Shown here: positions 27,977 to 44,289 of the stretch, one piece after another
How the letters are laid out: the number at the start of each line of letters is the position of its first letter
Numbering within the stretch: the first letter of the stretch is position 1
Origin: an uncultured Bacilli bacterium
Lineage (GTDB): Bacteria > Bacillota_I > Bacilli_A > RF39 > UBA660
DNA: 51,741 bases
Assembly (NCBI GenBank): GCA_904420615.1
Contig: CAJFVY010000018.1
Span: 1-51,741 of the forward strand
Direction of reading: 5' to 3'
Program-made: the position numbers and the translations under genes
The notes under the pieces: model-generated
The model's input: the letters and a program-made list of their open reading frames with translations, nothing else
Told to the model about the DNA's origin: nothing
The model's database searches: none

Positions 27977-28521
27977 GAAGGCATCACCGTCCCAAATTCT
28001 GTAGAAACTCCTCCATTCAAGAAGTTTTCTAATACAATTCTTAAATCATCATTGCTAACTTGTGAAGCATTTAAACCACAACCTGCCAAACCATTAATTA
28101 ATAGACGAATTCGTTTTTGTAATACATCCTCATTAGCATCCCTAAATAAAATGTAATATTCTGTATCAACAATATTATTACTCATAAAACTATTTCCTTT
28201 TTCAATATCTTGTAAAATAATTTTTCTAATAGCTGGTGATTGAGTATCATTATAAAGTAATTGTAATTGTGACATATAAACAGAAATATCAACTGGTCTA
28301 TCTGCTACAACCAACCAAAATTCAAAATCAATCATATTATAAAAGTTTTTTAAACTAATTAAAATATTATCTTGAGCTTGAGCATCAAGAATAAAAATAT
28401 TTCTAGGTGCGATTTTAACACCTGTGACTTTTTGTTTGTTGGAACAAATAATCATTCCATTACGAATACCTTCTACTGGTAACCAATCTTCTGTATATTG
28501 ACTACTTATTTTCTTGGCCAT
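27973..28521 (-). CDS. Separate ORF resembling the N-terminal domain of Gram-positive VirB4
   Basis: 182 aa. DWLPVEGIRNGMII...VTGVKIAPRNIFILD resembles the N-terminus of PrgJ/Orf16-type VirB4. The combined length of 182+596 aa matches single-chain homologues. Confidence 0.5.
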   Translation of the reverse strand: MAKKISSQYTEDWLPVEGIRNGMIICSNKQKVTGVKIAPRNIFILDAQAQDNILISLKNFYNMIDFEFWLVVADRPVDISVYMSQLQLLYNDTQSPAIRKIILQDIEKGNSFMSNNIVDTEYYILFRDANEDVLQKRIRLLINGLAGCGLNASQVSNDDLRIVLENFLNGGVSTEFGTVMPS

Positions 28522-28816
28522 CGTTATAGCACCAACCTTTCCATTTATATTTACGACGATTTGTCAAAAAAGAATAACACTCCATAATAACTGTTAATAC
28601 ATTGTGATAATTAGGAATTGGAATAATAAGAAATCCACAAATTGCTGCCGGTAATATAACTATAATAACTTGCCATGTAGTAGACATAGGCATAATAAGC
28701 AACATAATTAAGGTAGTAATTACTCCTATCGAGAATAAAATTAAGTCAAAGGGGCGAAAGATTCCTAAAATTAAATTGCCCCTTTTTGTATTTGCTGGTA
28801 TTAAATAATTATTCAT
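28502..28816 (-). CDS. PrgI/VirB3-like small membrane protein
   Basis: 104 aa with two TM helices. The N-terminal NTKRGNLILGIFRPFDLILF pattern fits. Lies immediately upstream of VirB4, as in Gram-positive T4SS. Confidence 0.55.
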   Translation of the reverse strand: MNNYLIPANTKRGNLILGIFRPFDLILFSIGVITTLIMLLIMPMSTTWQVIIVILPAAICGFLIIPIPNYHNVLTVIMECYSFLTNRRKYKWKGWCYNDGQENK

Positions 28817-28837: not shown

Positions 28838-30946
28838 TTAAGGTCTACCTAGAGGTGGTCCGCCACCTGGTCTTGGACCTCCACCACCATGTGGCCCATG
28901 ATCATGCAAATCAATGTTAGCTGCATATAAATCAGTATCACCATCATTAGCTGTATTTCCACTAGAAGCATCCGGATTAAATGGTTGCCGTCTTGTATAT
29001 GTTTCTGGACGAACAGTAGTAGTACTTCTGAATTCCTTTGCATCTTTAATTAGATCTTGCTGTTCACTAACTGCCCTTTGAGCCTCTATAACTTGTTTAT
29101 TGATATCAGCGTAATCATTATATAACTTATTACGATTATATCGCTCACTGAATTCTTTATATAAATCTGGTTGCCTTGCTTTAAAGAAACCTTCAGAAGT
29201 TGAATCTATAAACTGTCCAGTCTTAGGATTTACATATTGAGCAACACCACTAGAATTCATAAAATTAGCAAAGTTTTCATTTGAATCAGCGCTACTTACA
29301 TTAGCTTGTTTCATACGATTTCCCAGCATTTCTTTCTGTAATTGTAAATTAGATAATTCATCTTCTCTATCTTTTAAAATTCGTTTGGCCTCACTCATAC
29401 TTTCGTCATTTACACCATACCGAGAAGCTAAATTATTTCCAGACCACCGATGCAAAAATCCTCTTGCGCCACCCTCTGCATCTTTATCACCAGTAATTTT
29501 TTTAATAATATTATCCCGTGCCATACTATATTGTCTAAAGGGTTGCCCAGATTTTTGTTGAGTATAAGCTTCGTTGGCAGCATTAGCAGAATCAAAAGCT
29601 GCTGAAGCAGCCGCTGCGCCACCGCCTCTAAGACCTCCTAAGCCTCCTAAAACAGCTGATAATCCAATATTACTCATAGGAGCCCCCTTTATACCTAGAA
29701 CTTGTCTTAGAAAAGCAGGTGCTTGTTTCATAAAGAATAAAACACCAATAATTAAAAATACTGTAGCAAACAATCCTTCAGCAGCACCAATACTAAAAGC
29801 ATCTCCTAAATTGATTCCGCCTGTAGCGATCTGTTGAATACAAAAAGCCCCAAAATAAATAATCATAAGTCTTACAAATAAATCAAGATAAGTAGATACT
29901 AATACTTTTACCCAATTATTAAATGCTCCTTCGTCTTTTCCCTTAGGATCAATATAACTAATAATTGGAATAGGAGCAATTAATCTTAAAAGAGCTAGTT
30001 TAATCGAACGTACAGCAACATCTACTGTAAATCCTAAAATAATAATAATCATAATTACAGAACAAATAAGACCACCTAGTGGCATATAGTTGAATGCATA
30101 TGCTGCATTACGTGCACCAAAAGTCGCATCCCATAAATTTCCCTCAACATGCGAACCATTTTCATCACAATTAAGATTTACTATATTCGCGACTGTGAGA
30201 CCATTAAATTCATCGCTCATATAGTCCGAGTCAGCTACTTGTGTTGGGCATATTACATTAGGACAAGGATCATTTTCATCATAATCTTCATCACTACTAT
30301 TCTTACAAAATGGTTGAGTATTATCCTTTACAGCAGGCTGAACAAAAGCTCTTGCTACTGTAGCAATCATAGCTTCACCTGGATTCAGCTGATAATCTTC
30401 TATATACGTTTCTGGATCATTAGGATCCCTAGTATTTGCAGCAGTACCTAATATCAATTTTCCAATAATATTTTCTCTCATCATACTATCCTGAAATTTA
30501 TATAAATAACCAAATAAGATACCATTACTAGCAATTTTCGCCTCTAAACTATTGTCACTGGGATCAGGAATAGTACCTGTAGTATTAATGGGAATAATCA
30601 AAAGTAATAAAAAAAGTGAAACAACAACACGTGTAACAATCTTAGAAAGTCCTTTTTGATTATCTTTTATACTATCTGGATTAATAATAACATTAATAAT
30701 AGATAATGCTAATTTAAACATCATAAAAACACCCAAAATCAATTGGATTCTTTGATAAAAACCAACTACAACACTAGCTGAAAGAATTTCTGCAGATGCT
30801 ACAGAAAAAAAGATATTATAAACAAATGCTAATATATTATAGCCTAGGCCATCTAAAAAAGCTAATAAAGAGCGTCCAAAATCCATAAAATTACCAGCCA
30901 GGCCGGCAGGTCTTGTTTGGGCAGCTGTTGCTAAAATATTTATCAT
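28838..30946 (-). CDS. VirB6/TrbL-like polytopic channel protein with coiled-coil and Gly/Pro tail
   Basis: 702 aa with at least six hydrophobic helices. It has a Cys- and acid-rich loop, a Gly/Ala-rich segment GGLGGLRGGGAAAASAAF, and a C-terminus HGPHGGGGPRPGGGPPLGRP. Position is upstream of VirB3/VirB4. Confidence 0.6.
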   Translation of the reverse strand: MINILATAAQTRPAGLAGNFMDFGRSLLAFLDGLGYNILAFVYNIFFSVASAEILSASVVVGFYQRIQLILGVFMMFKLALSIINVIINPDSIKDNQKGLSKIVTRVVVSLFLLLLIIPINTTGTIPDPSDNSLEAKIASNGILFGYLYKFQDSMMRENIIGKLILGTAANTRDPNDPETYIEDYQLNPGEAMIATVARAFVQPAVKDNTQPFCKNSSDEDYDENDPCPNVICPTQVADSDYMSDEFNGLTVANIVNLNCDENGSHVEGNLWDATFGARNAAYAFNYMPLGGLICSVIMIIIILGFTVDVAVRSIKLALLRLIAPIPIISYIDPKGKDEGAFNNWVKVLVSTYLDLFVRLMIIYFGAFCIQQIATGGINLGDAFSIGAAEGLFATVFLIIGVLFFMKQAPAFLRQVLGIKGAPMSNIGLSAVLGGLGGLRGGGAAAASAAFDSANAANEAYTQQKSGQPFRQYSMARDNIIKKITGDKDAEGGARGFLHRWSGNNLASRYGVNDESMSEAKRILKDREDELSNLQLQKEMLGNRMKQANVSSADSNENFANFMNSSGVAQYVNPKTGQFIDSTSEGFFKARQPDLYKEFSERYNRNKLYNDYADINKQVIEAQRAVSEQQDLIKDAKEFRSTTTVRPETYTRRQPFNPDASSGNTANDGDTDLYAANIDLHDHGPHGGGGPRPGGGPPLGRP

Positions 30947-30991: not shown

Positions 30992-32179
30992 TTATTGTAT
31001 TCCACATGTTGGGTTACTAATTCCCAAAAATACATTTAATATTAATTGTACTATAAGCGGTATTAAAAACAGTGCTATGGCTGCAATTAATCTAATAATA
31101 AATTTGGATTGAACACTTTGCATTAGTTTTTCATCAGATGACATAATAGCTTTAATAAAATCTATAGCACTTAATAGTATTACCGCAATTGGACCGAATA
31201 TTTTAATATAATTTAATATTCGTTGTAAGATCCAGCCAACTGATCCTTCTTCCATAACAAATAAATTCTCACAACCAATTTTTTGATTAAAGTCCATTGT
31301 TTCATCATAATGGCTAACTGGATCACTAGCAGCAACAGCAATATAATTATAAGGATACATAAGACCATCATTTCCTTGATAATAAACATAATATGGATCA
31401 TTACCTTTTTCATAAGGATTTGATATACAATACTTATAATCAGATATTACATCACTGCCATTTATCATTTGTTCATGATAAGTCAACCAACCACTATAAG
31501 CACAATTATCTCTTGGATCCAAATCTGAATATTTAAAATCATTTGTTTGCTCAGCCTTAACATGATATACAGTCAACAAATTAGTATATGAATATGCATT
31601 AGCATCAATATTTTTATTTGAAATAAAGATATTAAAATCTGAATTTTCTCTATAAATATCTGCAACATATACATACTGTGGACACTGAGAAAAATCATAA
31701 TTTTCAGTACTAGATACATATGATGGAAAAGTAACAGTTCTTGATATATATACTTTATTATCAATAGTAAGAGGTGAATCTACATTTTTAAAACCATCTT
31801 CTGTATTGAAATCATAATCATTAACATACACATTTGGATCTATTGAAAATGAAAAATTATAATTTTGATTCCAATTTTTTACTTCATACGTATCATTTTC
31901 ATCATTAAGTGAAGCACCAAAGAATTCGAATAAAGTTGCATCAATCTTAGTTAAAGTATCATTTTCTCTATCATCAGGTCCATAGAGATTAATAGAAAGT
32001 TTAGCACTGGTTACTCCCACATCATCACTAACCATTGGTTCAATTGGTAGTGGTGTCTTATAAGTATATGTATATTCACACGTATTTCTTAGAGTATCAG
32101 CCTCTACAAAATTGGGCATAACAAAGTAACAAAAAACAAAAATAAAGAAAAAAGATTTTATTAGTATTTTAGCGCGCAT
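30992..32179 (-). CDS. Secreted ~300-aa domain fused to a C-terminal VirB2-like membrane hairpin
   Basis: 395 aa. Signal peptide ...NFVEA/DT. The C-terminal ~70 aa is paralogous to ORF 32358-32678 (ID..KA..SSDEK....QSK.I.R.I.A.A.F). Confidence 0.6.
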   Translation of the reverse strand: MRAKILIKSFFFIFVFCYFVMPNFVEADTLRNTCEYTYTYKTPLPIEPMVSDDVGVTSAKLSINLYGPDDRENDTLTKIDATLFEFFGASLNDENDTYEVKNWNQNYNFSFSIDPNVYVNDYDFNTEDGFKNVDSPLTIDNKVYISRTVTFPSYVSSTENYDFSQCPQYVYVADIYRENSDFNIFISNKNIDANAYSYTNLLTVYHVKAEQTNDFKYSDLDPRDNCAYSGWLTYHEQMINGSDVISDYKYCISNPYEKGNDPYYVYYQGNDGLMYPYNYIAVAASDPVSHYDETMDFNQKIGCENLFVMEEGSVGWILQRILNYIKIFGPIAVILLSAIDFIKAIMSSDEKLMQSVQSKFIIRLIAAIALFLIPLIVQLILNVFLGISNPTCGIQ

Positions 32180-32678: not shown

Positions 32679-32734
32679 ACATATCACTCCTCACTTAATA
32701 ACTTAATCATATAGTAATTTTTTATTTTTGTCAA

Positions 32735-33715
32735 TTAATTCCTTTTAAATAAACCAAATATTTTACCATCTGATTTATTATCTTTATTTTGGACTATTCC
32801 TAATTTACCAAGAAAAGTCGCTAAAGCTGGATTTTTAGCTCGATCATTTAATGGTGGAATACTATAAAATACTTTTGTTTTTCCTTCATATTCAAAATCC
32901 ATAATATCACTATTAGATAATAAACTCTTATTTAAAATAATCTTCTTACCTTTTAACTCTTCCAATACTCGTCTATTTCTTCTCATCATTTTATTTAATT
33001 TAATAATAGAAGGTTCAATTAGATAAAGAACATCGCCACAAACGCCTTCATTATTTGAATCATTTAAGTCGATCAAAATAATAGCTGCATCTTTATGCTT
33101 TACTACTTCAGTCATCAAGTCTTGATCATTCACTGACACCATATTTCTATCATTAAAATAAAGAAAATCATGGCGATTTACTTCAATAGCTGTAACGCTC
33201 ATCCCATAAGTCTGCTCTAACTCTTTCTTTAAAAGATAAATTAAAGTAGTACTTCCAGCATGATCTGTAATATTTTTAATACCAATGATTCTAGAACCTG
33301 CTACTACTTTGGCATTTATCGTAGTAGATAAATCATTTAATTGTTGAATATGAGCTACATCTTTATAAGTATTGGGATGCTCTAAGAAGTATTTTACGCC
33401 ATCAAGATTTGTTGTAAAGTTATAAATGCCCATAGAAATAATCTTGGACAAATAACTACTAGACGTTGAAATTTCATTATTAGGAAGTACCAAAATAATT
33501 TTATCAGCATCTAATCCCATTGATATTTTTTGTAAGTTAGTAATATCGTTATAATTTTCAATAGCTGTAATATCTAAAATCATTCTGGCATAAAAGAAAT
33601 TTTTAAACATGTCAACTAATTCATCAGCAGTATGAACTCCATCTACACTTTTAATAATGTCTATATCTAATTCGCTTAACATGGATTTTGCTTCATTAGC
33701 AACTATTACATTCAT
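32735..33715 (-). CDS. TadZ/CpaE-like protein: receiver-like N-domain plus ParA/MinD-like domain with degenerate P-loop
   Basis: 326 aa. The N-terminal ~120 aa is receiver-shaped (MNVIVANEA...DKIILVLP). The C-terminal part has IIGIKNITDHAGSTTLIYLL where MinD/ParA proteins carry G-K-G-G-x-G-K-T. Confidence 0.45.
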   Translation of the reverse strand: MNVIVANEAKSMLSELDIDIIKSVDGVHTADELVDMFKNFFYARMILDITAIENYNDITNLQKISMGLDADKIILVLPNNEISTSSSYLSKIISMGIYNFTTNLDGVKYFLEHPNTYKDVAHIQQLNDLSTTINAKVVAGSRIIGIKNITDHAGSTTLIYLLKKELEQTYGMSVTAIEVNRHDFLYFNDRNMVSVNDQDLMTEVVKHKDAAIILIDLNDSNNEGVCGDVLYLIEPSIIKLNKMMRRNRRVLEELKGKKIILNKSLLSNSDIMDFEYEGKTKVFYSIPPLNDRAKNPALATFLGKLGIVQNKDNKSDGKIFGLFKRN

Positions 33716-33735
33716 CTTTTACACCATCTTTCTTT

Positions 33736-34197
33736 TTAGCGTTCATAAATTGTTGTGGTTTCACCTGATACTTGTAAATAATTACCTAATGGTAAAAACC
33801 TATTGAGAAATGGAATATTAATATTAACAAAGGTAACTACCTGATAATATGTGCCACGGTAATTACCACTATTCTTATTTCCGCTGACATTAATAGCATG
33901 AACACAGTATCCTGCAGTCCTATCACACGTATATTCACTAGGATCTAAGCCGTCAAAAACAGAAGTTTCATCAAAGTAATCAGCTGGTACATAGTAATTC
34001 ATTCTTTGTACATATGATGCTATTTGCGATTGAGCATTTGTTGTATATCCTTCTGATTGTTCAATAATATCAATAATCCCATTTTTAACCCGGAAAGCCC
34101 TCGTATAATTTACAGAATAAGCCAAATAACCATTAATCAACAATACAAATGCTAAAATTATTTGGAGTGCAAATGCTCCACCAACAGCTTCTCTCAT
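33736..34197 (-). CDS. TadE-like pseudopilin
   Basis: 153 aa. Short polar leader MREAVG followed by a hydrophobic helix GAFALQIILAFVLLINGYLAY. Follows the mini-pilin gene as tadE does in tad loci. Confidence 0.5.
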   Translation of the reverse strand: MREAVGGAFALQIILAFVLLINGYLAYSVNYTRAFRVKNGIIDIIEQSEGYTTNAQSQIASYVQRMNYYVPADYFDETSVFDGLDPSEYTCDRTAGYCVHAINVSGNKNSGNYRGTYYQVVTFVNINIPFLNRFLPLGNYLQVSGETTTIYER

Positions 34198-34286
34198 ACC
34201 TTTAAAACACCCTTCCCAAGCTTTCCGCGTTTTTTTCTTTACTTACTATCTTTTATGCTTTTTATAGCTAATTTATATTTTTTTGA

Positions 34287-34439
34287 TTAACTTCTCTTTT
34301 CATTCGTTGTAGATTCAGTCCACTGATCAGTTACAGTATTCTGAATAGTTGGCCAAAAAGCCCAAAAAAATACTATAATTGCACCAATAATAATGATAGT
34401 AATAACTGTCATATTTAATTCTCCCGTTGCTTCTTTCAT
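34287..34439 (-). CDS. Flp-like mini-pilin (ORF below the track cut-off)
   Basis: My own translation of the minus strand gives MKEATGELNMTVITIIIIGAIIVFFWAFWPTIQNTVTDQWTESTTNEKRS (50 aa). It has a polar leader ending in Gly and a 20-aa hydrophobic helix. An alternative start at M10 has a GGGAG RBS. Confidence 0.55.
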   Translation of the reverse strand: MKEATGELNMTVITIIIIGAIIVFFWAFWPTIQNTVTDQWTESTTNEKRS

Positions 34440-34473
34440 TTAAAAATACACATCCTTTCCTATTATCAAATTT

Positions 34474-34502
34474 ATTATAACAAATATTTTATTTGTTGTA
34501 AC
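34474..34502 (-). promoter_or_regulatory. Possible internal promoter for the mini-pilin gene
   Basis: Minus strand reads GTTACA (34497-34502), a 17-nt spacer, then TGTTATAAT extended -10 (34474-34482), about 35 nt upstream of the ATG. The AT-rich context lowers specificity. Confidence 0.4.
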
Positions 34503-34522
34503 TATTTTTTTTCATTTTTACG

Positions 34523-35302
34523 TCAACCCATCATATTAAACATTGACGACAAAATAACTACCATTGTTCCAAGACCTGTTACAACAAGCATAATCATTGT
34601 CTGTTGTTCCATATGATTTAATCTTTCTTTATATTTCGTTTCACGTGCTTTGTTTTGCAAATTCGAAACAGTTCTTGAAAACATCAATAATCGTTCTTGT
34701 TTTTTTTCTTGTTCTCCAATTCCTAGACGATATAAAAGACGCATCATTCGCATAGAGTCTCTAACTGGATATTCATTCGCAAATTCCATATAAGGATCAA
34801 TACTAGAGTCACCTGAATTAATTTTTTCTATCATTTCTCTTAAACCATGTTTAAATATTTCAGGTGCTGATTCCAAACTTTTACCAATTGCTACTGGTAC
34901 TGTATAATGTTGAATTAAAATCTCTAAGCTCTTTAAATAGTATGGCAACATCAAGTCAATTTCATGCAAGTGAGCCTTATAATACTTTTTTAATTGCGTA
35001 TAAGGAAGTTTAAAAACAAGAAAAGCTATTCCTATTGCTAATGCAACATTTAATAGACTAATAGAATCAAGAAAAATAAACAAAAAGATAAAGGCAACTA
35101 TTACTCCATATTGAATTCTTTTATCAAATAAAACATCTGGTTTTGCATCTTCTCCATATTTTGCTCTTACTAAAAAATCGTAATCATCTTCCCTCAAGAC
35201 ATTAAAATAATGTTTATTATCTTGAATAAATTTCTTACTATCAATCGTTTTATTATAAATTAATACAAACAAGATAATGACAGCAACGAATAACATTTCC
35301 AT
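34523..35302 (-). CDS. TadC-like T2SS-F family inner-membrane platform protein
   Basis: 259 aa. TM1, a TM pair, a cytoplasmic helical domain (AIGKSLESAPEIFKHGLREMIEKINSGDSSIDPYMEFANEY) and a C-terminal TM. This is the T2SSF layout. Confidence 0.6.
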   Translation of the reverse strand: MEMLFVAVIILFVLIYNKTIDSKKFIQDNKHYFNVLREDDYDFLVRAKYGEDAKPDVLFDKRIQYGVIVAFIFLFIFLDSISLLNVALAIGIAFLVFKLPYTQLKKYYKAHLHEIDLMLPYYLKSLEILIQHYTVPVAIGKSLESAPEIFKHGLREMIEKINSGDSSIDPYMEFANEYPVRDSMRMMRLLYRLGIGEQEKKQERLLMFSRTVSNLQNKARETKYKERLNHMEQQTMIMLVVTGLGTMVVILSSMFNMMG

Positions 35303-35304
35303 AA

Positions 35305-36198
35305 CTATTCAACCCCCACATTTTCATTATAGTATCTTTCACCTTTCATCAAGAAATAACTGTTAAAGATGATAATACCATGTAACATAACCTGAACATA
35401 TGTCTGCTCTATCATAGCTAAGTAATTTTCACTACCAAGCATATATTGTATTAACATAACAAGGGCAAATAGCATGACACCATATTGCAAGAATTTTTTA
35501 TGGAAATTAGCTCGATCAAGTCTATCACGATAAACACTTTCAACAAGGGTATCGATATCAAGTTGCATATTTTCAAGACTTTCTCCAGAATCTTTAGCAC
35601 CTTCTCTAGTGATTTGTAAGAATAATTGATGCATATTCTTGACTATGTAATATGGATATTTATTATTCATATACTCTATCGATTCGTCAATTGAACCATT
35701 TTCATACGAAAGTTCTATCATGTGTTCTACATCACTTTTCACAGGATCTTCTAAAATGCCTGAGTCTCTCACTCCTTCAAGAGATTTCACAAAGCTCTGA
35801 GTCGTTGTAAATTCCATAATAACATTACTTGTATAAACCTGAATTTGTTCAAAGATATATTCACTATATACTCTTTTACATCTTAAGAAAGCAAGATATG
35901 GAATAAGAGCAATAGCTAACGTGGCATAAATAATACTAACTATAATATTATAAAAATATATATATGTTACTACAGCTGCAAAGCCTCCTAACATTAATAC
36001 TTGAGTCAAATATTGTCTTGGCGTATATTCTTGTCCTAATTCTTTTGTTTTTTCTCTTACTACTTTAAAAGAATAAGGAGCAAAGCGATCATATAGAGCT
36101 TGAAATTGTGAGGTAAAGTATTTTGCTACATTCTGCCCTTTATAATTACGATACAATAAAACTAAGGCAGCAATAATAACTAATAAGAATAATACCAT
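35305..36198 (-). CDS. TadB-like T2SS-F family inner-membrane platform protein
   Basis: 297 aa with the same layout as the next gene (KSLEGVRDSGILEDPVKSDVEHMIELSYENGSIDESIEYM). Lies directly after the ATPase. Confidence 0.6.
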   Translation of the reverse strand: MVLFLLVIIAALVLLYRNYKGQNVAKYFTSQFQALYDRFAPYSFKVVREKTKELGQEYTPRQYLTQVLMLGGFAAVVTYIYFYNIIVSIIYATLAIALIPYLAFLRCKRVYSEYIFEQIQVYTSNVIMEFTTTQSFVKSLEGVRDSGILEDPVKSDVEHMIELSYENGSIDESIEYMNNKYPYYIVKNMHQLFLQITREGAKDSGESLENMQLDIDTLVESVYRDRLDRANFHKKFLQYGVMLFALVMLIQYMLGSENYLAMIEQTYVQVMLHGIIIFNSYFLMKGERYYNENVGVE

Positions 36199-36213
36199 AA
36201 ATTTTCCTCCTTC

Positions 36214-37464
36214 CTATTGATCAAAATTAATTCTTGGTAATGATTCTTGTGTATTTAATGAAGTTGTAGCAGTAAAATTTGGAGTAATAATCTCATTATT
36301 ATCTGGTACTTCTACATTAGTAGACAAGGAAGGAGCTTCTTGAGTATCCATACTTTTATTCATTACTTCTTCTACTTCATTACTTAAATTATTCATGGAA
36401 TCCCCAGTCGTAAATAACTGATCAATATGTATATTCTGATTTTCTAGATATTCTCTTAAGTGATCACTTGGCATATTTTGTACAGGAGCCTTACCAAAGG
36501 TCTTTTGATAAAGTAGATGTGTTTGTGGTTTATTATCATCATCTACATAAAATTCCACAACTTCATCAACTTCACGATGAAATTTTCCATACTCTTTACT
36601 ATAATAAGCTTTAATGTGAACTCCTAATTGAATATAACGATAAATAGTATTTAAAAATTGGTCTACATCAATATCAGACTCTAACAATGAATAAAGACGA
36701 TATGGTATAGAACTAGCTTTATCAGCATGAATAGTTGATAAAATATTGTGTCCTGATGAAATAGAGTTACGAACGGCCGTTACTGCTTCAGCACTACGAA
36801 CTTCTGATAGTAAAATCCATTTAGGATTCTGTCGCATACAGGCTACTAGAATTTCTGAATAACTAGCAATATTATTCGTTTTCATAGCTACAATGTCTCG
36901 ATGGGGAAAGATTTTATCTAAGTGTAATTCTAGTGTATCTTCGATGGTAATAATCTTTTCATTTTCTTTCGTATGACTAGCTAAGTATTTAACAAATTCT
37001 GTTTTACCAGAACCAGTTTCTCCACTAACCATTATATTACAATGCCCTTCAACACATTTTATAAGGATATCGTGAATATTGGCTGTGAAGTAATCCTCTG
37101 CTAATAATTTTTCTTTACTAAGTCTTATTTTAGCAGGCGTTTTACGAATAACAACAGCAATTCCATTTGTTGCAATTGATTCATGCAAGAAGTTAAGACG
37201 TAATTCTGTACTTTCAGCATCCAAAAATGGTTTGGCCATATTAAAAGTTGTTCCCATAACATTAGAACATTGAAAGGCTAATTTATCTACAAAAGCATCA
37301 TTTAGCCCTTCAATTTCTATTCGCTTCGAACCATAGGTTAATGATCTAATCCATATTTGTCCATGGTTACAATAGGAAATATCAGTAATATCATCATCAT
37401 CAATTAGTGGTTGAAATAAACCAAAGTCAATCTTATCAAAAATAGCATCATTCATTCTAACCAC
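36214..37464 (-). CDS. tadA: CpaF/TadA (VirB11-superfamily) secretion ATPase
   Basis: 416 aa. Walker A SGETGSGKTEF, Asp box IITIEDTLEL, Walker B WILLSEVR, His box GHNILSTIHA. Confidence 0.8.
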   Translation of the reverse strand: MVRMNDAIFDKIDFGLFQPLIDDDDITDISYCNHGQIWIRSLTYGSKRIEIEGLNDAFVDKLAFQCSNVMGTTFNMAKPFLDAESTELRLNFLHESIATNGIAVVIRKTPAKIRLSKEKLLAEDYFTANIHDILIKCVEGHCNIMVSGETGSGKTEFVKYLASHTKENEKIITIEDTLELHLDKIFPHRDIVAMKTNNIASYSEILVACMRQNPKWILLSEVRSAEAVTAVRNSISSGHNILSTIHADKASSIPYRLYSLLESDIDVDQFLNTIYRYIQLGVHIKAYYSKEYGKFHREVDEVVEFYVDDDNKPQTHLLYQKTFGKAPVQNMPSDHLREYLENQNIHIDQLFTTGDSMNNLSNEVEEVMNKSMDTQEAPSLSTNVEVPDNNEIITPNFTATTSLNTQESLPRINFDQ

Positions 37465-37482
37465 ACTCCTTTAAATTCATTT

Positions 37483-38307
37483 TTATTGTTGTTGTGTTGC
37501 TGCTAATTCCTGATCTGTCATAGCAGTAACATTATTAATAAAGTTACGTAAATCTTCACTAGATACTTTAACATCCCCTGGATCTTCTTCTAGACTCTCA
37601 GCTGTTGGTACTGGAATAATTTCAGAATCATAGGCTCTTAAGTAACTAGCTTTTCTAAGTAACAAGTGATATTCTTCTGGAACAGCAAAGATAATTTGAG
37701 CAGGTGTTCCTTTTTCATCAAGATTAGCAAATACGTTATTACCATTAGAATCAAAAACTGCTAAAACTTTTACGTTTTCTAGTAATTTACCAATCATAAT
37801 TCTATCTTCTGTAACATTACCATTTGCATCTGTTGGATTCGTAATTTTTAAATATATATCTATATAATTACCTGGATAGATAGAGTTACTATAAGAAGTT
37901 GTCATATTAACAGCCAAATTATATAATACATAACCTTTTGGATAATTATAAATAATTGCAGCTGGTAATTGATCACGAGTTACTACACTCCGTGAATAGA
38001 ATAAACTTCCTTCCGGAATGACGCTATCTCCTGCAGAATACATATCTATAACATCTTCTGCATTTCGATATACATCACCAGCTAACATAGCCGGTGGTAC
38101 TTCCATAGTACCAACCATATCTTCTGTTATTTGTGTACTTGGATTAATCGTAACTAAAGCATATGGTACACTAATTGGATTTACTGCTTGGTTTACTCGC
38201 ATATTATAACCTACATAAAGAACTATAATAGCTAGAATAACGCCAACTACAGTAACTGTATTTTTGTTAGTAAAAAACTTTTTTATACCAATTACTAAAT
38301 TATTCAT
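37483..38307 (-). CDS. CpaB/RcpC-like pilus assembly protein (SAF plus beta-clip)
   Basis: 274 aa. N-terminal TM, an SAF-like segment (INPSTQITEDMVGTMEVP...IPEGSLF), then GNYIDIYLK...LENVKVLAV...AQIIFAVPEEYHLLLRKA. Confidence 0.55.
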   Translation of the reverse strand: MNNLVIGIKKFFTNKNTVTVVGVILAIIVLYVGYNMRVNQAVNPISVPYALVTINPSTQITEDMVGTMEVPPAMLAGDVYRNAEDVIDMYSAGDSVIPEGSLFYSRSVVTRDQLPAAIIYNYPKGYVLYNLAVNMTTSYSNSIYPGNYIDIYLKITNPTDANGNVTEDRIMIGKLLENVKVLAVFDSNGNNVFANLDEKGTPAQIIFAVPEEYHLLLRKASYLRAYDSEIIPVPTAESLEEDPGDVKVSSEDLRNFINNVTAMTDQELAATQQQ

Positions 38308-38328
38308 ATATTTCCTCCTTCTTATTCA

Positions 38329-38790
38329 TTAACCATCAACTTCACTATAATCAAGTTCCCCACGTCTTGTCATGTCTGTAATAAATTCATTGGTCTTATA
38401 AGTACTTTCTAATATAGCATCAATTTGATTACTAATACCTAATGTTTCGCTATTAAAAGTTGCAGAAGTTGAAGAATCAACTTTAATACTTACTTTAGGT
38501 GGTGTTTCATTAATATCATAAAATTTTATACTATAGCTTCGATTATTAGCAACGTTTTGAGCAAAACGACGTATAAAGCTTTCGGCAAACATTTCTTTAT
38601 CAATACGAAGATTACCATAGAGACGGTAATAACCAATATCTACCGCATCGGTCATAGCCGCCTCTGTAGTCTCTCTTAACAAATAATAATCAAGTTCATT
38701 ACCTGTTTGATAATTTTGAACAATATTTACTACACCGAAGGTAAAAAGCGCTAAGATAATAATTCCAATGATCATCATACCTCTACTCAT
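38329..38790 (-). CDS. Pseudopilin-like protein (TadF/TadG-like position)
   Basis: 153 aa. Short leader MSRG followed by a hydrophobic helix MMIIGIIILALFTFGVVNIV. No further motif. Confidence 0.35.
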   Translation of the reverse strand: MSRGMMIIGIIILALFTFGVVNIVQNYQTGNELDYYLLRETTEAAMTDAVDIGYYRLYGNLRIDKEMFAESFIRRFAQNVANNRSYSIKFYDINETPPKVSIKVDSSTSATFNSETLGISNQIDAILESTYKTNEFITDMTRRGELDYSEVDG

Positions 38791-38792
38791 TT

Positions 38793-41657
38793 TTACTCTC
38801 CTCCTCTTCTACTAGCACTCTCGCTTTGATAAGTATCGTAACAAAGTTGGCTATCTTGATAAATTGCAGTATCACACTGAGTAGCACTAGATTGATTATT
38901 ACATCCGATTAATCCACGTTTTACCAAGAAGTCTGTTCCATATCTTTCTGACATTTCATCAATAAATGAACTCTTATATACTGAAATACCAGGTGTTTTA
39001 TTAATTCCAGCTGAAGATTGTGATTTATCATCAGTTGGATTTAAATAACTTCCTTGTTCTGAATTATAATTTCGAATAGCATTAATAGTAGTTGGAGTTA
39101 AAGTAAATTCATAATCTAGATATTTTTCTTCATTTGCTTCATCATATATACTATTACCAGCTTTTTGAATATTTTCTCGTAATGCTACTGGTTGTACTAA
39201 ATAATCTTGATTAGACAAGTTAGTAGCACCACAACTCCAGTTAAAGTATGGATCTCTAGTACTTGATCCTTCTTCTGATGCAGGGAATAAATTAGTTAAC
39301 GAAATAGATCTAAAGCCATAAGCATCTGTAATATCCCATTCACAATCTTCCTCATCTGGATCACATTCATAATCACACTCTTCAACAGAAGGATCACATA
39401 TAGGATTATCATTATCGCAAATTTCAACTTTAGGATCACATTCTACCTTATCATCATCATCTGGTAAAGCCAAAGCATAGAAACATGTTAGTGGAATATT
39501 CCAGTTATAGTAACCAAAGTTTTCAATATTAACATGAATATTTTGATTTTCATTTACTTCTTGGTTAATAATAGACATTTCTTCACTCGTTAAACCATAA
39601 TTTTCTTTACTATGATCATAATATCTCTTCCATCTATACCAGTTAACATTGATTGGCGTAGAATCCATTCTAGTACAGAATTTACGACCAAGTTCTGTAT
39701 AAATGCTAGTATCTTCAGGTTCTTTATCTGTTATGATATGAGTTTTATTATTTAAATAATGTTTAGGGAAAGTTAATACATCACGATAAGTATATGGCGG
39801 ATATTCTTCCTCATAACAAATACCGTTTGTATCAATAACAATATCATCTCCTACAACATCAGTTCCACCTTTATTTTGTGTAGCATCATATATTACTTCA
39901 TAATCTTCATCACTTTCAATTGGATTATCAACAGTAATGTCAAAAGATGCAGTTCCTTCTGTTTGATTATTACTACATAATGATGCGGCTGCATCACACT
40001 TAGCTGCTACATTTTGTGTTTCTTGTTGTTGAGATTGTGATATCAAATTAGCTGCTTCTTGAGTTGGTACAGAATTCGCTGGACATTGTCCAATCAACTG
40101 ACATGAATCAGTACAATTGGCATCTACACCGTTTCTTGTTGTTTGCATTAAGAAACCATTTTGTTCACGATAAGCAAAAGTAGCACTACTACTAGCTAAA
40201 TTAGCATAACCAAGCCAAAGTTTAATTGTCTCAGCAGTTTGTTCTACACTATTTAAATACCATGGAGCTACTGAAATATAATTTTGTCCTCTATTGGCAT
40301 TCCAATATGTACGTCCTTGACTATCCTTTGCATATGAACCAAAATAAGATAAACCATTATCAGCAATCATTTGACTATATCTTTGATATAACTCTCTTGC
40401 TAGTGTCATCAAATCTTCTCCATCACGATAACGGACACCATACTCACTAAGCCATAAGTTTCTATTTTCACTTTCTGTATCAGAAGCATCTACTTTTCTA
40501 ATCGTATTTAAATCATCATTACTATTTTTAGTTTGATAAGTTAAAATAGTAGCATTATTACTATTAATAGATAATTCATCAGTTTCTTCATTCTCATATA
40601 CTTTAGTATAACATTTATTAATACATGCTTGCGTATATTCGCCGCCATCACATTCAGTAATACAATTATCAAAATCATCATCTGGTCCACCATTATGATA
40701 ATTGGTTCCTGTTTTTGTTGTACATTGTGGTACTAAAGTACATACTTCTGGAGGTGAAGGAATGTTTCCAGTATATTTACCAGAACAATCCATTGTTGTT
40801 CTAATTTCAGCTACATATTCAAAACACATTCCAATTTGAGTCTCTACTGGAGGATCCCAAATCACTTCTACTGTTTCAACACACTCTACTTCACAATCAT
40901 TAATGCCGTCATTCGTAACATCTATACTACTAGTTCCTGTATGATAATATTTTCTAGTACTATCACGTTCCGAAAAAGTATCACATTGAGCGCCAGTCAA
41001 ATCAGGATTTGTTGGATCAGATATTTCCTTGGCATCTGTTGGTATTACTACAGGATCACTTACATTTGATAAATTATGAAGATTAACTGCAGTCTCAATA
41101 TACTGATTAATTCTATCTATACTAAATGCATCTAATCTAGCTTGTGTCACTTGTTCTTCAAAACAAATAGATACTGCCGCTGCCATATTAGCATCATTTT
41201 GATAAGTATTACGATAATTTATGCAGGATTGAGAGTTGTAATAAGGATTAGAAACCAAACTTTCTACTGCAAAGCGATATGTCTTTGTACATGCTGTATC
41301 ACCAACATATGTCAAAATCAATTCGTTAGTGGTTGATACCATATCATTTGGATTTAAATTAATAATTAAATTACCATTTGATACACTAATAGAACTTTGA
41401 GCTATTCCATTTAAAGTAACTGTATAATCAGCTGCATTAAATTGATCACTATCATATTGAGAATTAATTGTAACTGTTGATCCTTCAACATTAATTGTAT
41501 TAGGCAATATTTCTATTTCACGGCATTGTTTTAATCCTTCTTCATTATCCTCACCAGATACAGACACCGTAGCAGTAACAAGAATAAAACCTACTAACAA
41601 AAACATAAGTGTAGATATTAGCCATGCTCCCTTTTTATGCTTCTTGATTATTGTCAT
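38793..41657 (-). CDS. Large N-terminally anchored, Cys-rich extracellular protein
   Basis: 954 aa with a TM after KKHKKG. Many Cys throughout. Contains the acidic Cys cluster ECDPKVEICDNDNPICDPSVEECDYECDPDEEDCEW. Confidence 0.6.
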   Translation of the reverse strand: MTIIKKHKKGAWLISTLMFLLVGFILVTATVSVSGEDNEEGLKQCREIEILPNTINVEGSTVTINSQYDSDQFNAADYTVTLNGIAQSSISVSNGNLIINLNPNDMVSTTNELILTYVGDTACTKTYRFAVESLVSNPYYNSQSCINYRNTYQNDANMAAAVSICFEEQVTQARLDAFSIDRINQYIETAVNLHNLSNVSDPVVIPTDAKEISDPTNPDLTGAQCDTFSERDSTRKYYHTGTSSIDVTNDGINDCEVECVETVEVIWDPPVETQIGMCFEYVAEIRTTMDCSGKYTGNIPSPPEVCTLVPQCTTKTGTNYHNGGPDDDFDNCITECDGGEYTQACINKCYTKVYENEETDELSINSNNATILTYQTKNSNDDLNTIRKVDASDTESENRNLWLSEYGVRYRDGEDLMTLARELYQRYSQMIADNGLSYFGSYAKDSQGRTYWNANRGQNYISVAPWYLNSVEQTAETIKLWLGYANLASSSATFAYREQNGFLMQTTRNGVDANCTDSCQLIGQCPANSVPTQEAANLISQSQQQETQNVAAKCDAAASLCSNNQTEGTASFDITVDNPIESDEDYEVIYDATQNKGGTDVVGDDIVIDTNGICYEEEYPPYTYRDVLTFPKHYLNNKTHIITDKEPEDTSIYTELGRKFCTRMDSTPINVNWYRWKRYYDHSKENYGLTSEEMSIINQEVNENQNIHVNIENFGYYNWNIPLTCFYALALPDDDDKVECDPKVEICDNDNPICDPSVEECDYECDPDEEDCEWDITDAYGFRSISLTNLFPASEEGSSTRDPYFNWSCGATNLSNQDYLVQPVALRENIQKAGNSIYDEANEEKYLDYEFTLTPTTINAIRNYNSEQGSYLNPTDDKSQSSAGINKTPGISVYKSSFIDEMSERYGTDFLVKRGLIGCNNQSSATQCDTAIYQDSQLCYDTYQSESASRRGGE

Positions 41658-42423
41658 TTGTTACACCTTCTTCCATTCTTTCTCTTATCGGTTCATAATT
41701 ATCATTTGTCTTAACATCAACTAATGTTTGTCTTTCTCCATCTCGTAATTTTCTAGCATCTACTCTAAAGGAATAACTACTTCCTGATCCATAGAATCTT
41801 GTACATGTATATAGAGTTAATAATAAATCATCTTTTGTAACATCAACATCCATATCATACATACTTTCTTCTTTTGACTTTTTTATATATTCTTCTAATT
41901 CCTCATCTGTAAATGTATCATAGAAAGAAGCACTTTGATCATCTTCTAGTAAAGCAACAGCATATATCCTATAAAGTGCAGTTTCACCAGTAACATCAGT
42001 AAACTCAATATACTGATTTTCATTTGTAAATTCAGGATAGATAAAAGCCATCAATTGTTCAAAACGAGTCATACTATCATCATCGATAATTGGATTTCGT
42101 GAAACATTACGAATATTATGCGAAATATAACTTGGATGATTACTGTTTTCATCAGGGAAAGCATTTGTCCAAGCAAATTGATATTCCATATTAGTAACAT
42201 CCTGAGCTGTAGTCCCCTGAATTAGTGCCATGTCAATATTGGTTCCTTCCACTCTTATCCAACCAACAACTTCGTCTCCATATTGTTTTGCCTGTTCTAT
42301 TTTGTCTTTTTCATCCATAATTTTAAAATCACTGGTTCGAACACTTAAAAGCCACCACAGCACTAATGTTATGGCAACTATTGCAATAATTAATCCAATA
42401 ATTAATAAACTTCGTTTTCTCAT
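41635..42423 (-). CDS. srtB: Class B sortase-like transpeptidase
   Basis: 262 aa with an N-terminal TM. VVGWIRVEGTNIDMALIQG, a His region SYISHNIR, the active-site motif LLLTLYTCT and a downstream Arg (SFRVDARK). It is collinear with S. aureus SrtB as I recall that sequence. Confidence 0.7.
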   Translation of the reverse strand: MRKRSLLIIGLIIAIVAITLVLWWLLSVRTSDFKIMDEKDKIEQAKQYGDEVVGWIRVEGTNIDMALIQGTTAQDVTNMEYQFAWTNAFPDENSNHPSYISHNIRNVSRNPIIDDDSMTRFEQLMAFIYPEFTNENQYIEFTDVTGETALYRIYAVALLEDDQSASFYDTFTDEELEEYIKKSKEESMYDMDVDVTKDDLLLTLYTCTRFYGSGSSYSFRVDARKLRDGERQTLVDVKTNDNYEPIRERMEEGVTNDNNQEA

Positions 42424-42435
42424 CTTCTACAACTC

Positions 42436-44289
42436 CTATTTTGAAATAGTATATGGATTAGCTTCTGTTCCATCCCCACCTGTTAAATATGCATCTTTAT
42501 CTATATATATTTTTAATTTTACACTTGCTCCTTCATAATCATGTAATCCAGTGTAAGGAATTGTTCCAATTGGAAAGACAATTGCTTTTGTATTAGCTTG
42601 TGTTGAAGAATCTATTAACCAATAACCAGGTCCAGAATTATCTGTTTTAGCACTGAAAATATCAAATGTAGATGGAATAGAAATCCTTGCTTTATATTTT
42701 TTGGTTGTTTTTTTGCCTTGATAAGTGATATTGCCTTCATATATTGGAACAGTTATTTCTTTATTTACTAATAGTTTAGTATCAATATATTCAATTCCTG
42801 TATTTACAATTTGATAACCAATGTTACCTTCTTCCTCAGGATTATAAACTTTATCATTATCACCATTATCATATCTAATTTGATAAGTTACTCCTTGATC
42901 ATCAGATAAAGTTCCAGTCATAATAAGTTCTACTTGATCATGGTCAATACCAGCAATCCTAAACGTATATCCAGAATAGTTTACATATTCACCAATATGA
43001 CGTGTATTTAATAAAGCATTACGTCTACCACTATTTTCCTCTATTATTATATAAGGATCTTCTGCAGTACCTGTACCAGATAACACTTTAGTGTCAGCAT
43101 CAATTCGTAAGGCTGGTCGAATATTGAACAAAGTATCCCCACTCATAGCTTCTATTTTTTCTGGATAAGCTGCAGGTGGAAATAAAGTCCAAGGATTATT
43201 GCTCTCATTAAAGTTAGCCAACCAAAACATATTGCTAGCATCTAAATAACTAAGGTTGTCTTGTAAACTTAAATTATAATCTTGTAAAGATAAAATTCCT
43301 ATTTGTCTTTCATCTGAATATCTATTACACTCAGTAGTATTATAATTGGCAGCTGTCACTTGATCATCACACCATTTACTATTAACAATTATTTTCTTAA
43401 AATCATCATCAAGTAAAGAATAAAAATAATCATTTAACCAGTCATCAAGACTACTATCAATAAAACGTCCATCTTCACTACTATAATCCACATTACTAAC
43501 TGGATCAGCACTAACTAATGTAATAGTATCATCTTCACTTACTCCAACAATTCTAAATAACATATGACTAAACATAATATAGTTATTAGGACCCGCTCCT
43601 TGATAATAACCATTTTCCGTATTAGCTTCCACAATACTAGATAAGCTTTCACTAACATTAATTGTTCTTTCTACTACTGTTGTATTATTCAATGAATCAC
43701 TAACAGTATAAGTAACTGTATACGTACCAACTTTAGATGTATCTACTTTTCCTTCAATAGTAACAGATGCTATATCCATTTCTCCGTCTACATTATCAAT
43801 AACACTTTTAACCCCTGGTTCTTCATAAGTATCTCCACGGCTAAGATCCATTTCTTTATCGCCATTTAATGTTATTTTTGGTCCTTCATGATCTACACTA
43901 GATTCATAATTTCCACATTTTAAATAAGTATAATACTCATTTTCACCATTTCGTTTTACAACTTTCACATTAGAGTTTTTATAATCACAGCGCTTATTAC
44001 TATAAACTTGTGTCAATTCTTCTACATAATCATGTTGTGCTAACGTTTCTAAGCTAACTGTTATAACTCTTCCTTCTTCTCTTGGTAAATAGCTAGAGTT
44101 AATTTCAAAGTATCTCTTTCCACCTTTATCAAGTTTTTCTTCTTGGCCTTTGAAATATATCTGTGGATAAATTATAGCAAACCAAACAATAAGAATAATT
44201 AGAATAATCGCTAAGATAATTACAGCAATCCTCAATAGTTTTTTCATCTTAGGCGTAAGTACAAATTTTTTATTTTTTTTCTTTTCCAT
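42436..44289 (-). CDS. N-terminally anchored surface protein with Ig-like domain and two copies of the domain found in ORF 19470-20672
   Basis: 617 aa with a TM. Ig-like segment GPKITLNGDKEMDL...GTYTVTYTVSDSLNNTTVVERTINV. Two units (NNYIMFSHMLFRIVGV...EDPY and YVNYSGYTFRIAGI...ANPY). Confidence 0.6.
   Translation of the reverse strand: MEKKKNKKFVLTPKMKKLLRIAVIILAIILIILIVWFAIIYPQIYFKGQEEKLDKGGKRYFEINSSYLPREEGRVITVSLETLAQHDYVEELTQVYSNKRCDYKNSNVKVVKRNGENEYYTYLKCGNYESSVDHEGPKITLNGDKEMDLSRGDTYEEPGVKSVIDNVDGEMDIASVTIEGKVDTSKVGTYTVTYTVSDSLNNTTVVERTINVSESLSSIVEANTENGYYQGAGPNNYIMFSHMLFRIVGVSEDDTITLVSADPVSNVDYSSEDGRFIDSSLDDWLNDYFYSLLDDDFKKIIVNSKWCDDQVTAANYNTTECNRYSDERQIGILSLQDYNLSLQDNLSYLDASNMFWLANFNESNNPWTLFPPAAYPEKIEAMSGDTLFNIRPALRIDADTKVLSGTGTAEDPYIIIEENSGRRNALLNTRHIGEYVNYSGYTFRIAGIDHDQVELIMTGTLSDDQGVTYQIRYDNGDNDKVYNPEEEGNIGYQIVNTGIEYIDTKLLVNKEITVPIYEGNITYQGKKTTKKYKARISIPSTFDIFSAKTDNSGPGYWLIDSSTQANTKAIVFPIGTIPYTGLHDYEGASVKLKIYIDKDAYLTGGDGTEANPYTISK

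Follow-up and report, generated by a model that had tools for sequence, protein, structure and literature searches.

In a 51,741-nucleotide (nt) contig of an uncultured Bacilli bacterium (GenBank assembly GCA_904420615.1, contig CAJFVY010000018.1; this whole stretch is called the window below), eight open reading frames (ORFs) on the minus strand at 32735-38790 form a real but very divergent Tad-like pilus-assembly module. Our preferred interpretation, to which we assign a probability of about 0.6, is that this module is a divergent type IV filament system of the Tad/archaeal type which is integral to a Gram-positive type IV secretion system (T4SS) of the pLS20/pXO1 type, and which has been fixed in the chromosome of small-genome gut Bacilli, namely Candidatus Onthousia and its relatives. 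Its most interesting aspect is the embedding in a T4SS together with the link to uncharacterised genes of plasmid pLS20.

The ORFs are transcribed in the order DUF5411 protein, CpaB-like protein, ATPase, two membrane proteins of 297 and 259 amino acids (aa), a 50-aa mini-pilin candidate, a 153-aa minor-pilin-like protein and a 326-aa TadZ-like protein, with intergenic gaps of 2-89 nt (Table 1). An earlier note, made from the sequence of this DNA alone, had described a Tad-like module here; its ORFs and their boundaries, the gene order and the IKNITDHAGSTT motif were all found exactly at the positions it gave, and the succession of an ATPase, two platform-like proteins, a mini-pilin and a minor-pilin-like protein was supported as that of a Tad/type IV filament-like module. 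What did not hold was the picture of a classic tad locus standing alone, as the genes form a sub-module within a larger Gram-positive T4SS operon of the pLS20/pXO1 type, which extends over ~19470-45862. The family labels T2SSF, Flp and TadE likewise failed the sequence tests and rest on fold, topology and synteny.

Components of the Tad-like module

Three of the component assignments, those of the ATPase, the CpaB-like protein and the DUF5411 protein, are strong as judged from sequence. The ATPase possesses the motifs of a TadA/CpaF-type motor, with an intact Walker A (GETGSGKT, residues 148-155) and equally intact Asp box, Walker B (ILLSEVR) and His box (TIHA). Its best matches in the PDB covered both domains and included the archaellum ATPase FlaI (9.6e-22), CpaF (1.5e-16) and archaeal GspE, whereas VirB11 chains aligned to the C-domain only (residues 129-263; 4.5e-13). 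Among the NCBIfam models, VirB11 (the top match, 9.4e-31), TIGR03819 (TadA family conjugal transfer-associated ATPase) and FlaI scored nearly equally, at ~1e-30 to 1e-29, and the protein stayed far below every equivalog cut-off tried; for the VirB11 model TIGR02788 it reached 107 bits against a cut-off of 250. The best plasmid matches were pLS20 gene 37 and 'CpaF/VirB11 family' proteins of the pXO1/pXO2 type, with 31-35% identity, and the plasmids in question are conjugative plasmids of Firmicutes (pLS20, pXO1, pXO2/pAW63-like, Listeria and Paraclostridium). By its motifs and matches, the ATPase is securely placed as a divergent member of the Tad/archaeal/VirB11 group.

The CpaB-like protein passed the Pfam RcpC model narrowly (29.2 bits, cut-off 28.8) and matched TIGR03177 CpaB at 1.2e-9, which is under the cut-off of that model. 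Its assignment is nevertheless firm because of the match to the annotated CpaB of pXO1 (BLASTP 1.5e-21; hidden Markov model (HMM) 7.8e-36). The earlier note had considered a CpaB-like gene odd in an organism without an outer membrane; the gene is indeed present, but it is no oddity, since the pXO1 locus and an actinobacterial plasmid tad locus, that of Clavibacter, begin with a CpaB/SAF gene. In the Clavibacter locus, the genes at the TadC and TadZ positions likewise escape Pfam. In view of these loci, we regard CpaB in a monoderm, as well as divergence beyond the reach of Pfam, as normal. The DUF5411 assignment of the first module gene is unambiguous by its sequence, and an HMM of its orthologs matched pLS20 gene 36 at 3.4e-6 and a 149-aa protein of pXO1 at 5.6e-6.

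Both membrane proteins, i.e. the TadB-like and the TadC-like platform candidate, display the topology of TadB and TadC, with an N-terminal transmembrane helix, a transmembrane pair (around residues 64-104 in the TadB-like protein), a soluble domain of ~130 residues and one or more C-terminal transmembrane helices. Pfam T2SSF matched neither of the two candidates in the window nor any of 27 TadB-like orthologs; by fold and context, membership in this family is probable. When an AlphaFold2 (AF2) model of the TadC-like protein was compared with the PDB by Foldseek, just two matches had a probability >0.8. These were SpoIIIAB (6bs9; probability 0.96, TM-score normalised to the target 0.56), which has been described as GspF-like, and the cytoplasmic domain of the GspF-family protein OutF (5nbg; probability 0.84, TM-score normalised to the target 0.63). 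Several TadC-like orthologs are named 'Flp pilus assembly protein TadB' in IMG, and hhalign linked the TadC-like protein to pLS20 gene 39 (90% probability, E 1.6e-6). A SpoIIIA-type sporulation channel, which the SpoIIIAB match had brought into play, was rejected, as VirB4, VirD4, VirB6-like and CpaB-like proteins are present and the spoIIIAA score was negligible.

For the TadB-like protein, the ortholog HMM matched the 310-aa protein at the TadB position of pXO1 (1.2e-10), and among 37 plasmid proteins the top two were pLS20 gene 38 and its Paraclostridium homolog (7e-4 and 5e-4, respectively). An hhalign comparison with the gene-38 family (52 members) aligned 206 colinear columns at E 7.1e-4, with a probability of just 26%. 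Some relatives of gene 38 are labelled 'GspF domain-containing' by UniRef, and gene 38 itself gave an insignificant match to Pfam T2SSF (0.19), though one that ran across the whole domain. Paralogy of the TadB-like and TadC-like families was not demonstrated, because hhalign aligned the N-terminal part only (39% probability); a pairwise BLASTP comparison had E 0.019. Neither sequence nor profile searches retrieved anything from the PDB for the TadZ-like, TadB-like or TadC-like protein or for the gene-38 family.

In 81 orthologs from ~80 species, the mini-pilin candidate begins with MK(E/A)A(T/S)GEL(N/S)(M/L)T and continues as a single hydrophobic helix; the window protein reads MKEATG-ELNMTV. 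In the minor-pilin-like protein, which the earlier note had termed TadE-like, the N-terminus is M(R/K)(D/E)(A/S)xG(G/Q), and again a transmembrane helix follows (~80 species). Both proteins thus have a six-residue head, M[KR]xAx[GA], in common; ending in Gly6, it resembles a short signal of the class III (prepilin) type, and in the mini-pilin the hydrophobic helix behind this glycine would fit such a signal peptide. The archaeal type IV pilin model Pilin_N gave weak matches to the mini-pilin (0.055 for the window protein; five orthologs, best 0.018). In pXO1, the best matches of the mini-pilin ortholog HMM, still weak, were the three 67-aa Flp-like genes (0.0066-0.013), whose leader glycine aligns at the corresponding position. 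Pfam TadE was found neither in the minor-pilin-like window protein nor in 27 orthologs; the HMM of this family matched pLS20 gene 40 at 4.2e-5 and a DUF4320 protein of pXO1 at 0.02, and gene 40 in turn weakly matches DUF4320 (0.0058). The pilin and 'TadE' labels are accordingly weak ones, given for size, topology and the common M[KR]xAxG N-terminus.

The earlier note had also pointed out that the cluster encodes no TadV/CpaA-type peptidase. None was found in the entire window either; as a peculiarity, however, this does not stand, since Tad loci commonly have their peptidase elsewhere: tadV may occur as a 'loner', and one peptidase may serve several systems (PMC6668835). The common head suggests processing by a prepilin peptidase encoded elsewhere. 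The 519-aa polytopic gene and other membrane ORFs, considered as the missing peptidase, were rejected, as they have neither a GxGD motif nor a Peptidase_A24 match. In the gaps between the genes, promoter-like sites occur at 34474-34502 (minus strand), upstream of the mini-pilin gene and with an extended -10 element, and at 32706-32734 (minus strand), upstream of the VirB2-like gene and with 11/12 matches; over the region as a whole, such sites are no more numerous than expected by chance.

A TadZ-like protein without Walker A lysines

The last gene of the module encodes a protein whose family (453 clusters at 50% identity) had no sequence match in Pfam, NCBIfam or the PDB, even when a 41-sequence profile was used. 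An AF2 model built from an alignment of 41 diverse family members had a predicted local distance difference test score (pLDDT) of 91.4 and consists of two α/β domains, a receiver/flavodoxin-like N-domain and a C-domain with the ParA/MinD fold, connected by a variable disordered linker. In the Foldseek comparison with the PDB, the top rank was taken by the two-domain protein IcmF; the ParA-family protein 3ea0 followed at 3.9e-5 and the two-domain TadZ of Eubacterium rectale (3fkq) at 1.9e-4 with a probability of 0.98, and the C-domain further matched the SIMIBI NTPases HypB, BcsQ, MinD and ParF. The identity as a TadZ-like protein is hence a structural one, taken from the predicted model.

The segment IKNITDHAGSTT sits between a strand (142-148) and a helix (155-170) of the model, which is the position of the P-loop in the ParA/MinD fold. 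Aligned by length to KGGxGK[ST]T, the loop of the family has the consensus G145 x [KRQ] N148 x T150 x H A153 G154 [AS]155 T156 [TS], so that the signature lysine is replaced by Thr150 and the catalytic lysine by Ala/Ser155. Both lysine positions of the deviant Walker A motif of ParA/MinD proteins (xKGGxGK[ST]) are substituted in all 41 diverse sequences, with Ala or Ser at position 155 in 41/41. At the same time, N148, T150, A153, G154, T156, E178, D183, D216 and N218 are invariant or nearly so. The loop has been remodelled under strong constraint and has not decayed. Two proposals of the earlier note, a TadZ without a P-loop and its shift to the end of the module, were thereby supported, the first by the ParA/MinD fold that the suggested structure prediction returned, and the lysine-less TadZ-like gene at the module end is a genuine family-wide variant.

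In known TadZ proteins, Walker A is likewise atypical, yet ATP is still bound (PMC6668835). The loop is also colinear with that of the 'AAA family ATPase' of pXO1 (RIIAFYATNENVGKSTL in pXO1 versus RIIGIKNITDHAGSTTL), whose gene lies between cpaB and cpaF and whose loop still has the lysine of GKS; it is plausible that the pXO1 loop represents an evolutionary intermediate. In the N-domain (residues 44-53), Asp48 at the end of strand 3 (ILDITAIK) is invariant and occupies the position of the phospho-acceptor Asp of receiver domains, and Thr50 and Lys53 are highly conserved. This lysine-less family, for which there is no database model, offers a clean case of a ParA/MinD fold turned into what is probably a non-hydrolysing scaffold.

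Operon, genomic setting and conservation

The module forms the middle of one packed, co-directional block that runs from 45862 to 19470 on the minus strand with gaps of -23 to 178 nt (-23 to 13 nt in the upstream part). Directly abutting the TadZ-like gene is a VirB2-like gene, and VirB4, VirD4, VirB6-like and VirB3-like proteins and a VirB1-type hydrolase are encoded in one operon, as in the pLS20 family. The gene arrangement is not due to chance, because the nine module genes were colinear on one strand in 68 of the 68 related loci that carry them, and the 14 genes from DUF5411 to VirB4 were colinear in all 48 loci that have the complete set. Even one locus with no more than 36% identity in the TadZ-like protein showed the unchanged gene order.

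Relatives of the TadZ-like protein are numerous, with at least 6094 in a database clustered at 90% identity, the named ones coming from Candidatus Onthousia, and at least 563 places in a collection holding one genome per species. The carriers are uncultured gut 'Bacilli/Tenericutes' metagenome-assembled genomes, Clostridium sp. CAG:451, Candidatus Onthousia and Candidatus Faecimonas, some of them with closed genomes of 1.5 Mb. Among relatives, the parts of the machine are well preserved (ATPase 65-90% identity, VirB4 74-90%, platform candidates 55-80%); exposed parts vary more (minor-pilin-like protein 29-62%, Cys-rich protein 23-42%). The conservation of this relaxase-less chromosomal version over hundreds of uncultured species of the gut suggests a cell-surface machine that defines the lineage.

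One distant variant departs from this arrangement. In locus L084 (logan SRR8925781_14090, 3104-13175), whose TadZ-like protein is 23% and whose VirB4 is 70% identical, the mini-pilin, minor-pilin-like and TadZ-like genes stand directly before the T4SS genes. Either the missing genes are located elsewhere in that genome, or the three proteins can work with the T4SS alone. The L084 genes come after dnaB/dnaI and two genes for secreted proteins.

The whole cluster is chromosomal in character. It is flanked on one side by infC, rplT, rpsB, tsf and typA and on the other by genes for a P-type (cation) ATPase, spoVA and scpAB, and its G+C content equals that of the flanks (~30% over the whole window). 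No relaxase, integrase or replication gene was found in the 51.7-kb window, nor was a flanking tRNA gene, so that the relaxase and the mobile-element context (plasmid or integrative and conjugative element) of the pLS20 family are missing from the window. An integrative and conjugative element was rejected on the lack of an integrase, a relaxase and a flanking tRNA gene.

Table 1 Features of the module and the surrounding T4SS operon, in the order of transcription.
Feature	Position	Strand	Basis or remark
Upstream operon part: polytopic DUF4352 protein (519 aa), Ig-like/DUF6273 surface protein (617 aa), sortase-like protein, secreted protein (954 aa)	38793-45862	-	
DUF5411 protein, 153 aa, N-terminal transmembrane helix	38329-38790	-	Pfam DUF5411 2.9e-50; candidate minor pilin or accessory protein
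CpaB/RcpC-like protein, 274 aa, N-terminal transmembrane helix	37483-38307	-	Pfam RcpC 9.1e-7
TadA/CpaF/FlaI-type secretion ATPase, 416 aa	36214-37464	-	Pfam T2SSE 4.4e-28
TadB-like platform candidate, 297 aa	35305-36198	-	topology; profile links to pXO1 and pLS20
TadC-like platform candidate, 259 aa	34523-35302	-	predicted fold; same topology as TadB-like
Mini-pilin candidate, 50 aa, single transmembrane helix	34287-34439	-	conserved N-terminus and hydrophobic helix
Minor-pilin-like protein, 153 aa, N-terminal transmembrane helix	33736-34197	-	N-terminal pattern, topology
TadZ-like protein, 326 aa, soluble	32735-33715	-	AF2/Foldseek fold
IKNITDHAGSTT segment, residues 146-157 of the TadZ-like protein	33245-33280	-	P-loop equivalent without both lysines
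VirB2-like protein, 109 aa	32358-32687	-	T4SS_pilin match in 17/26 orthologs
Secreted protein, 395 aa, VirB2-like C-terminus	30992-32179	-	
TrbL/VirB6-like protein	28838-30946	-	Pfam TrbL_4 5e-10
VirB3-like protein	28502-28816	-	
TraC-like protein and VirB4	26186-28521	-	AAA_10/P-loop_TraG; TraC-like annotation in relatives
M23 cell-wall hydrolase	23893-26151	-	Peptidase_M23 4.2e-24
Two single-transmembrane proteins, ~175 aa each	22849-23881	-	
VirD4 coupling protein	20689-22845	-	T4SS-DNA_transf 1.7e-61
DUF6273 protein	19470-20672	-	

The T4SS part of the operon has several features of its own. A VirB2/T4SS_pilin-like two-helix domain is common to the 109-aa protein and, at its C-terminus, the 395-aa protein, and relatives carry two to three such genes; the cluster thus holds VirB2-like pilins besides the type IV-like mini-pilin. 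An hhalign comparison of the 109-aa family with the T4SS pilin of pLS20 gave no signal. VirB4 consists of two proteins, a TraC-like N-terminal one of 182 aa and an ATPase of 596 aa, whose genes overlap by 4 nt; relatives and plasmids of the pLS20 type show the same split. At its C-terminus, the VirD4 protein has a strongly acidic tail (DDDGDDDDFFDDFFDE), and the TrbL-like protein a Gly/Pro-rich one (HGPHGGGGPRPGGGPPLGRP). In the upstream part, the sortase-like gene (41635-42423, minus strand) matches Pfam Sortase at 2.3e-6 and carries TLYTC at residue 203, although no LPxTG-type C-terminal sorting signal was found in the cluster proteins. The 954-aa secreted protein (38793-41657, minus strand) contains 33 cysteines, has no Pfam domain, evolves faster than any other product of the operon, and may be a tip adhesin or specificity determinant.

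Outside the cluster, the ribosomal proteins S2 and L20 (48797-50453, minus strand) have C-terminal Rho_N/SAP-like extensions. Proteins with Myb-like DNA-binding repeats, which are unusual in bacteria, are encoded at 6847-9050 (minus strand), one of them with 517 aa and adjoined by a 226-aa sigma-70-r4/HTH protein; a related contig (L096) has a 734-aa version. A RelB/YafQ-type toxin-antitoxin pair lies at 10607-11258 (minus strand).

Proposed function, alternatives and comparison with known systems

If the module is a filament motor within the T4SS, a hexameric TadA/FlaI-like ATPase with intact catalytic motifs would drive a membrane platform of the TadB-like and TadC-like proteins. This platform would pull the 50-aa mini-pilin out of the membrane and polymerise it into a short filament or pseudopilus, primed by the 153-aa minor-pilin-like protein and perhaps by the DUF5411 protein, and a ring of the CpaB-like protein could guide the filament through the wall. 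The TadZ-like protein may act as a non-hydrolysing positioning or recruiting scaffold which couples the motor to the VirB4/VirB6/VirD4 channel. The filament would help the T4SS, which has its own VirB2-like pilins, to reach or cross the envelope by contact, wall penetration or retraction. A bolder version, which we put forward only tentatively and at odds clearly below even, takes the Tad-like and T4SS genes as one hybrid nanomachine specific to monoderms that, in the Onthousia-like gut Bacilli, has lost its relaxase and is used as a core chromosomal organelle in a role other than plasmid conjugation. Such a role might, for example, be DNA uptake or export, or the delivery of proteins to neighbouring cells, by analogy to the essential T4SS of the Patescibacterium Southlakia epibionticum.

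Several observations weigh against a filament module as part of the T4SS. While the T2SSE and RcpC models named in the earlier note did match, those for T2SSF, TadE, Flp and CpaE/ParA matched no module protein in the Pfam and NCBIfam scans, and the Pfam models T2SSF, TadE and Flp had 0 matches in 76 sequences, comprising the TadB-like, mini-pilin and 153-aa proteins of the window and their orthologs. The mini-pilin contains no G/xxxxEY motif, and its residue +1 is Glu. Among the ORFs scanned in the 51.7-kb window, none matched Peptidase_A24, and the GxGD motif is absent from all stop-free segments of at least 60 aa across the window. The AF2 model of the TadC-like protein reached only moderate quality (pLDDT 72), with weak E-values (0.55-1.9) in the Foldseek comparison. 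Alignment of the module families with genuine TadB/TadC proteins by hhalign gave no signal, a weak negative given that the reference comprised four sequences, from Rhizobium and Clavibacter plasmids, and both sides were shallow. L084 lacks adjacent genes for an ATPase, a platform, CpaB and DUF5411, and no homolog of any module gene has an experimentally shown function.

In one alternative, an ordinary monoderm Tad adhesion pilus, serving gut colonisation as in Bifidobacterium, might simply neighbour an unrelated T4SS. The module does provide every Tad-type role, its ATPase, CpaB-like and TadZ-like proteins being joined by two candidates for the platform and by those for the pilins, sortase and adhesin-like genes are located upstream, and on pXO1 the Tad-like locus lies ~10 kb off the T4SS genes and is not interleaved with them. 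We nevertheless consider two independent systems unlikely, as genes 36-41 of pLS20 are interleaved in the conjugation operon, the block in the window is packed, co-directional and invariably colinear in relatives, the TadZ-like gene abuts the VirB2-like gene, and L084 retains the pilin, minor-pilin-like and TadZ-like genes with the T4SS genes in the absence of the ATPase.

The same L084 variant agrees with another view, in which no filament is made, the ATPase is the VirB11 of this T4SS, and the membrane proteins constitute a T4SS-specific inner-membrane scaffold with a superficial resemblance to Tad. VirB11 is the top NCBIfam match of the ATPase, the pLS20 literature terms gene 37 a 'putative VirB11', the T2SSF, TadE and Flp sequence models all fail, and the cluster already has VirB2-like pilins. 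Still, VirB11 structures cover the C-domain only, as opposed to the two-domain alignments of FlaI and CpaF, and hallmarks of type IV filament systems are present in the form of the CpaB-like protein, the TadZ-like protein with its two domains and the GspF-like fold; canonical VirB/D4 T4SSs are not known to contain any of these. The pilin candidates, moreover, have a short class III-like N-terminus in common, and a T4SS without filament motor appears to us somewhat less probable again than two independent systems. That the cluster is a non-functional, decaying remnant of an integrated conjugative element, as the lack of a relaxase or integrase in the window and the chromosomal position between typA and the cation ATPase might indicate, is highly improbable in the face of ORFs that are all intact, ATPase, VirB4 and platform proteins that are 55-90% identical over dozens of species, a perfectly conserved gene order, a GC content equal to that of the flanks and no flanking tRNA gene found.

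The preferred reading, a filament module integral to the T4SS, draws on the comparison with two Bacillus plasmids. As judged by profile comparison, module genes are homologous to genes 36-40 of pLS20 (with gene 38 the weakest at E 5e-4 to 7e-4) as well as to genes of the pXO1 locus. Like the window, pLS20 of Bacillus subtilis has a DUF5411-type gene (gene 36; Pfam DUF5411 1.4e-5), an ATPase gene (gene 37; 34.6% identity), two genes for polytopic proteins (38 and 39), gene 40 (120 aa, N-terminal transmembrane helix) and gene 41 (47 aa, single transmembrane helix). This group (genes 36-41) occupies the centre of the conjugation operon, with the adhesin gene on one side and VirD4 on the other, and is followed by T4SS pilin, VirD4, VirB6-like, VirB3-like, split VirB4 and hydrolase genes (45, 48-54). 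Unlike the window, pLS20 is a plasmid with a relaxase and lacks CpaB-like and TadZ-like genes, and its VirD4 precedes VirB6, whereas VirD4 is found near the operon end in the window. In the publication on the pLS20 family, gene 37 is given as 'putative VirB11', genes 36 and 38-41 carry the entry 'Unknown', and Tad and pilins are nowhere mentioned (PMC8557374).

The Tad-like locus of pXO1 from Bacillus anthracis comprises cpaB, an AAA ATPase gene, CpaF/VirB11, a gene at the TadB position and three 67-aa Flp-like genes. DUF5411-like and DUF4320 genes are located upstream, the ATPase is 31% identical to that of the window, the ParA-type protein has a deviant P-loop colinear to that of the TadZ-like protein, and the plasmid also carries T4SS genes. 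In contrast to the window, the ParA-like gene is at its canonical place between cpaB and the ATPase gene and its product retains the GKS lysine and lacks the N-terminal receiver-like domain, the pilins have a 21-residue leader, and the Tad-like locus is separated from the T4SS genes by ~10 kb.

Canonical Tad/Flp systems (type IVc; Aggregatibacter tad, Caulobacter cpa and those of monoderm Actinobacteria) have, like the module, a TadA/CpaF-type motor and CpaB/RcpC, and their two platform proteins of one domain each, their small pilin, their minor pilins and their TadZ have candidate counterparts in it; their monoderm versions have no secretin and start with SAF/CpaB. The window differs from them in having no G/xxxxEY motif and no matches to the T2SSF, TadE and Flp models, a TadZ-like gene that comes last and lacks the Walker lysines, no linked peptidase, and a position inside a T4SS operon. 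The E. rectale TadZ (3fkq) resembles the TadZ-like protein in combining an atypical receiver with a ParA/MinD-like domain in the Foldseek comparison; the window family is set apart from known TadZ proteins by Thr150 and Ala/Ser155 in place of the lysines and by the lack of any sequence-level match.

Chromosomal, relaxase-less T4SSs of the monoderm type with VirB2-like pilins have been described in the small genomes of Patescibacteria, where co-option beyond conjugation was proposed (PMC12102498). These belong to another phylum, and the study makes no reference to Tad and treats type IV pili apart from the T4SS (PMC12102498). In the Gram-negative systems IncI R64 and PAPI-1, a type IV filament machine cooperates with VirB4/VirD4-type components (PMC12857230). 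They differ from the window in that the pili are of type IVb, the hosts are diderms and the genes form separate clusters. The 2025 T4SS review names neither pLS20 nor Tad (PMC12857230).

Gram-positive T4SSs are far less understood than their Gram-negative counterparts, not least in how they cross a thick wall. If a filament motor is indeed built into T4SSs of the pLS20/pXO1 class, several uncharacterised pLS20 genes could be tested in a tractable host, and the hybrid reading would give a function to the 'unknown' genes 36 and 38-41. A built-in motor of this kind would also provide the third example of cooperation between a T4SS and a type IV pilus, and the first in monoderms.

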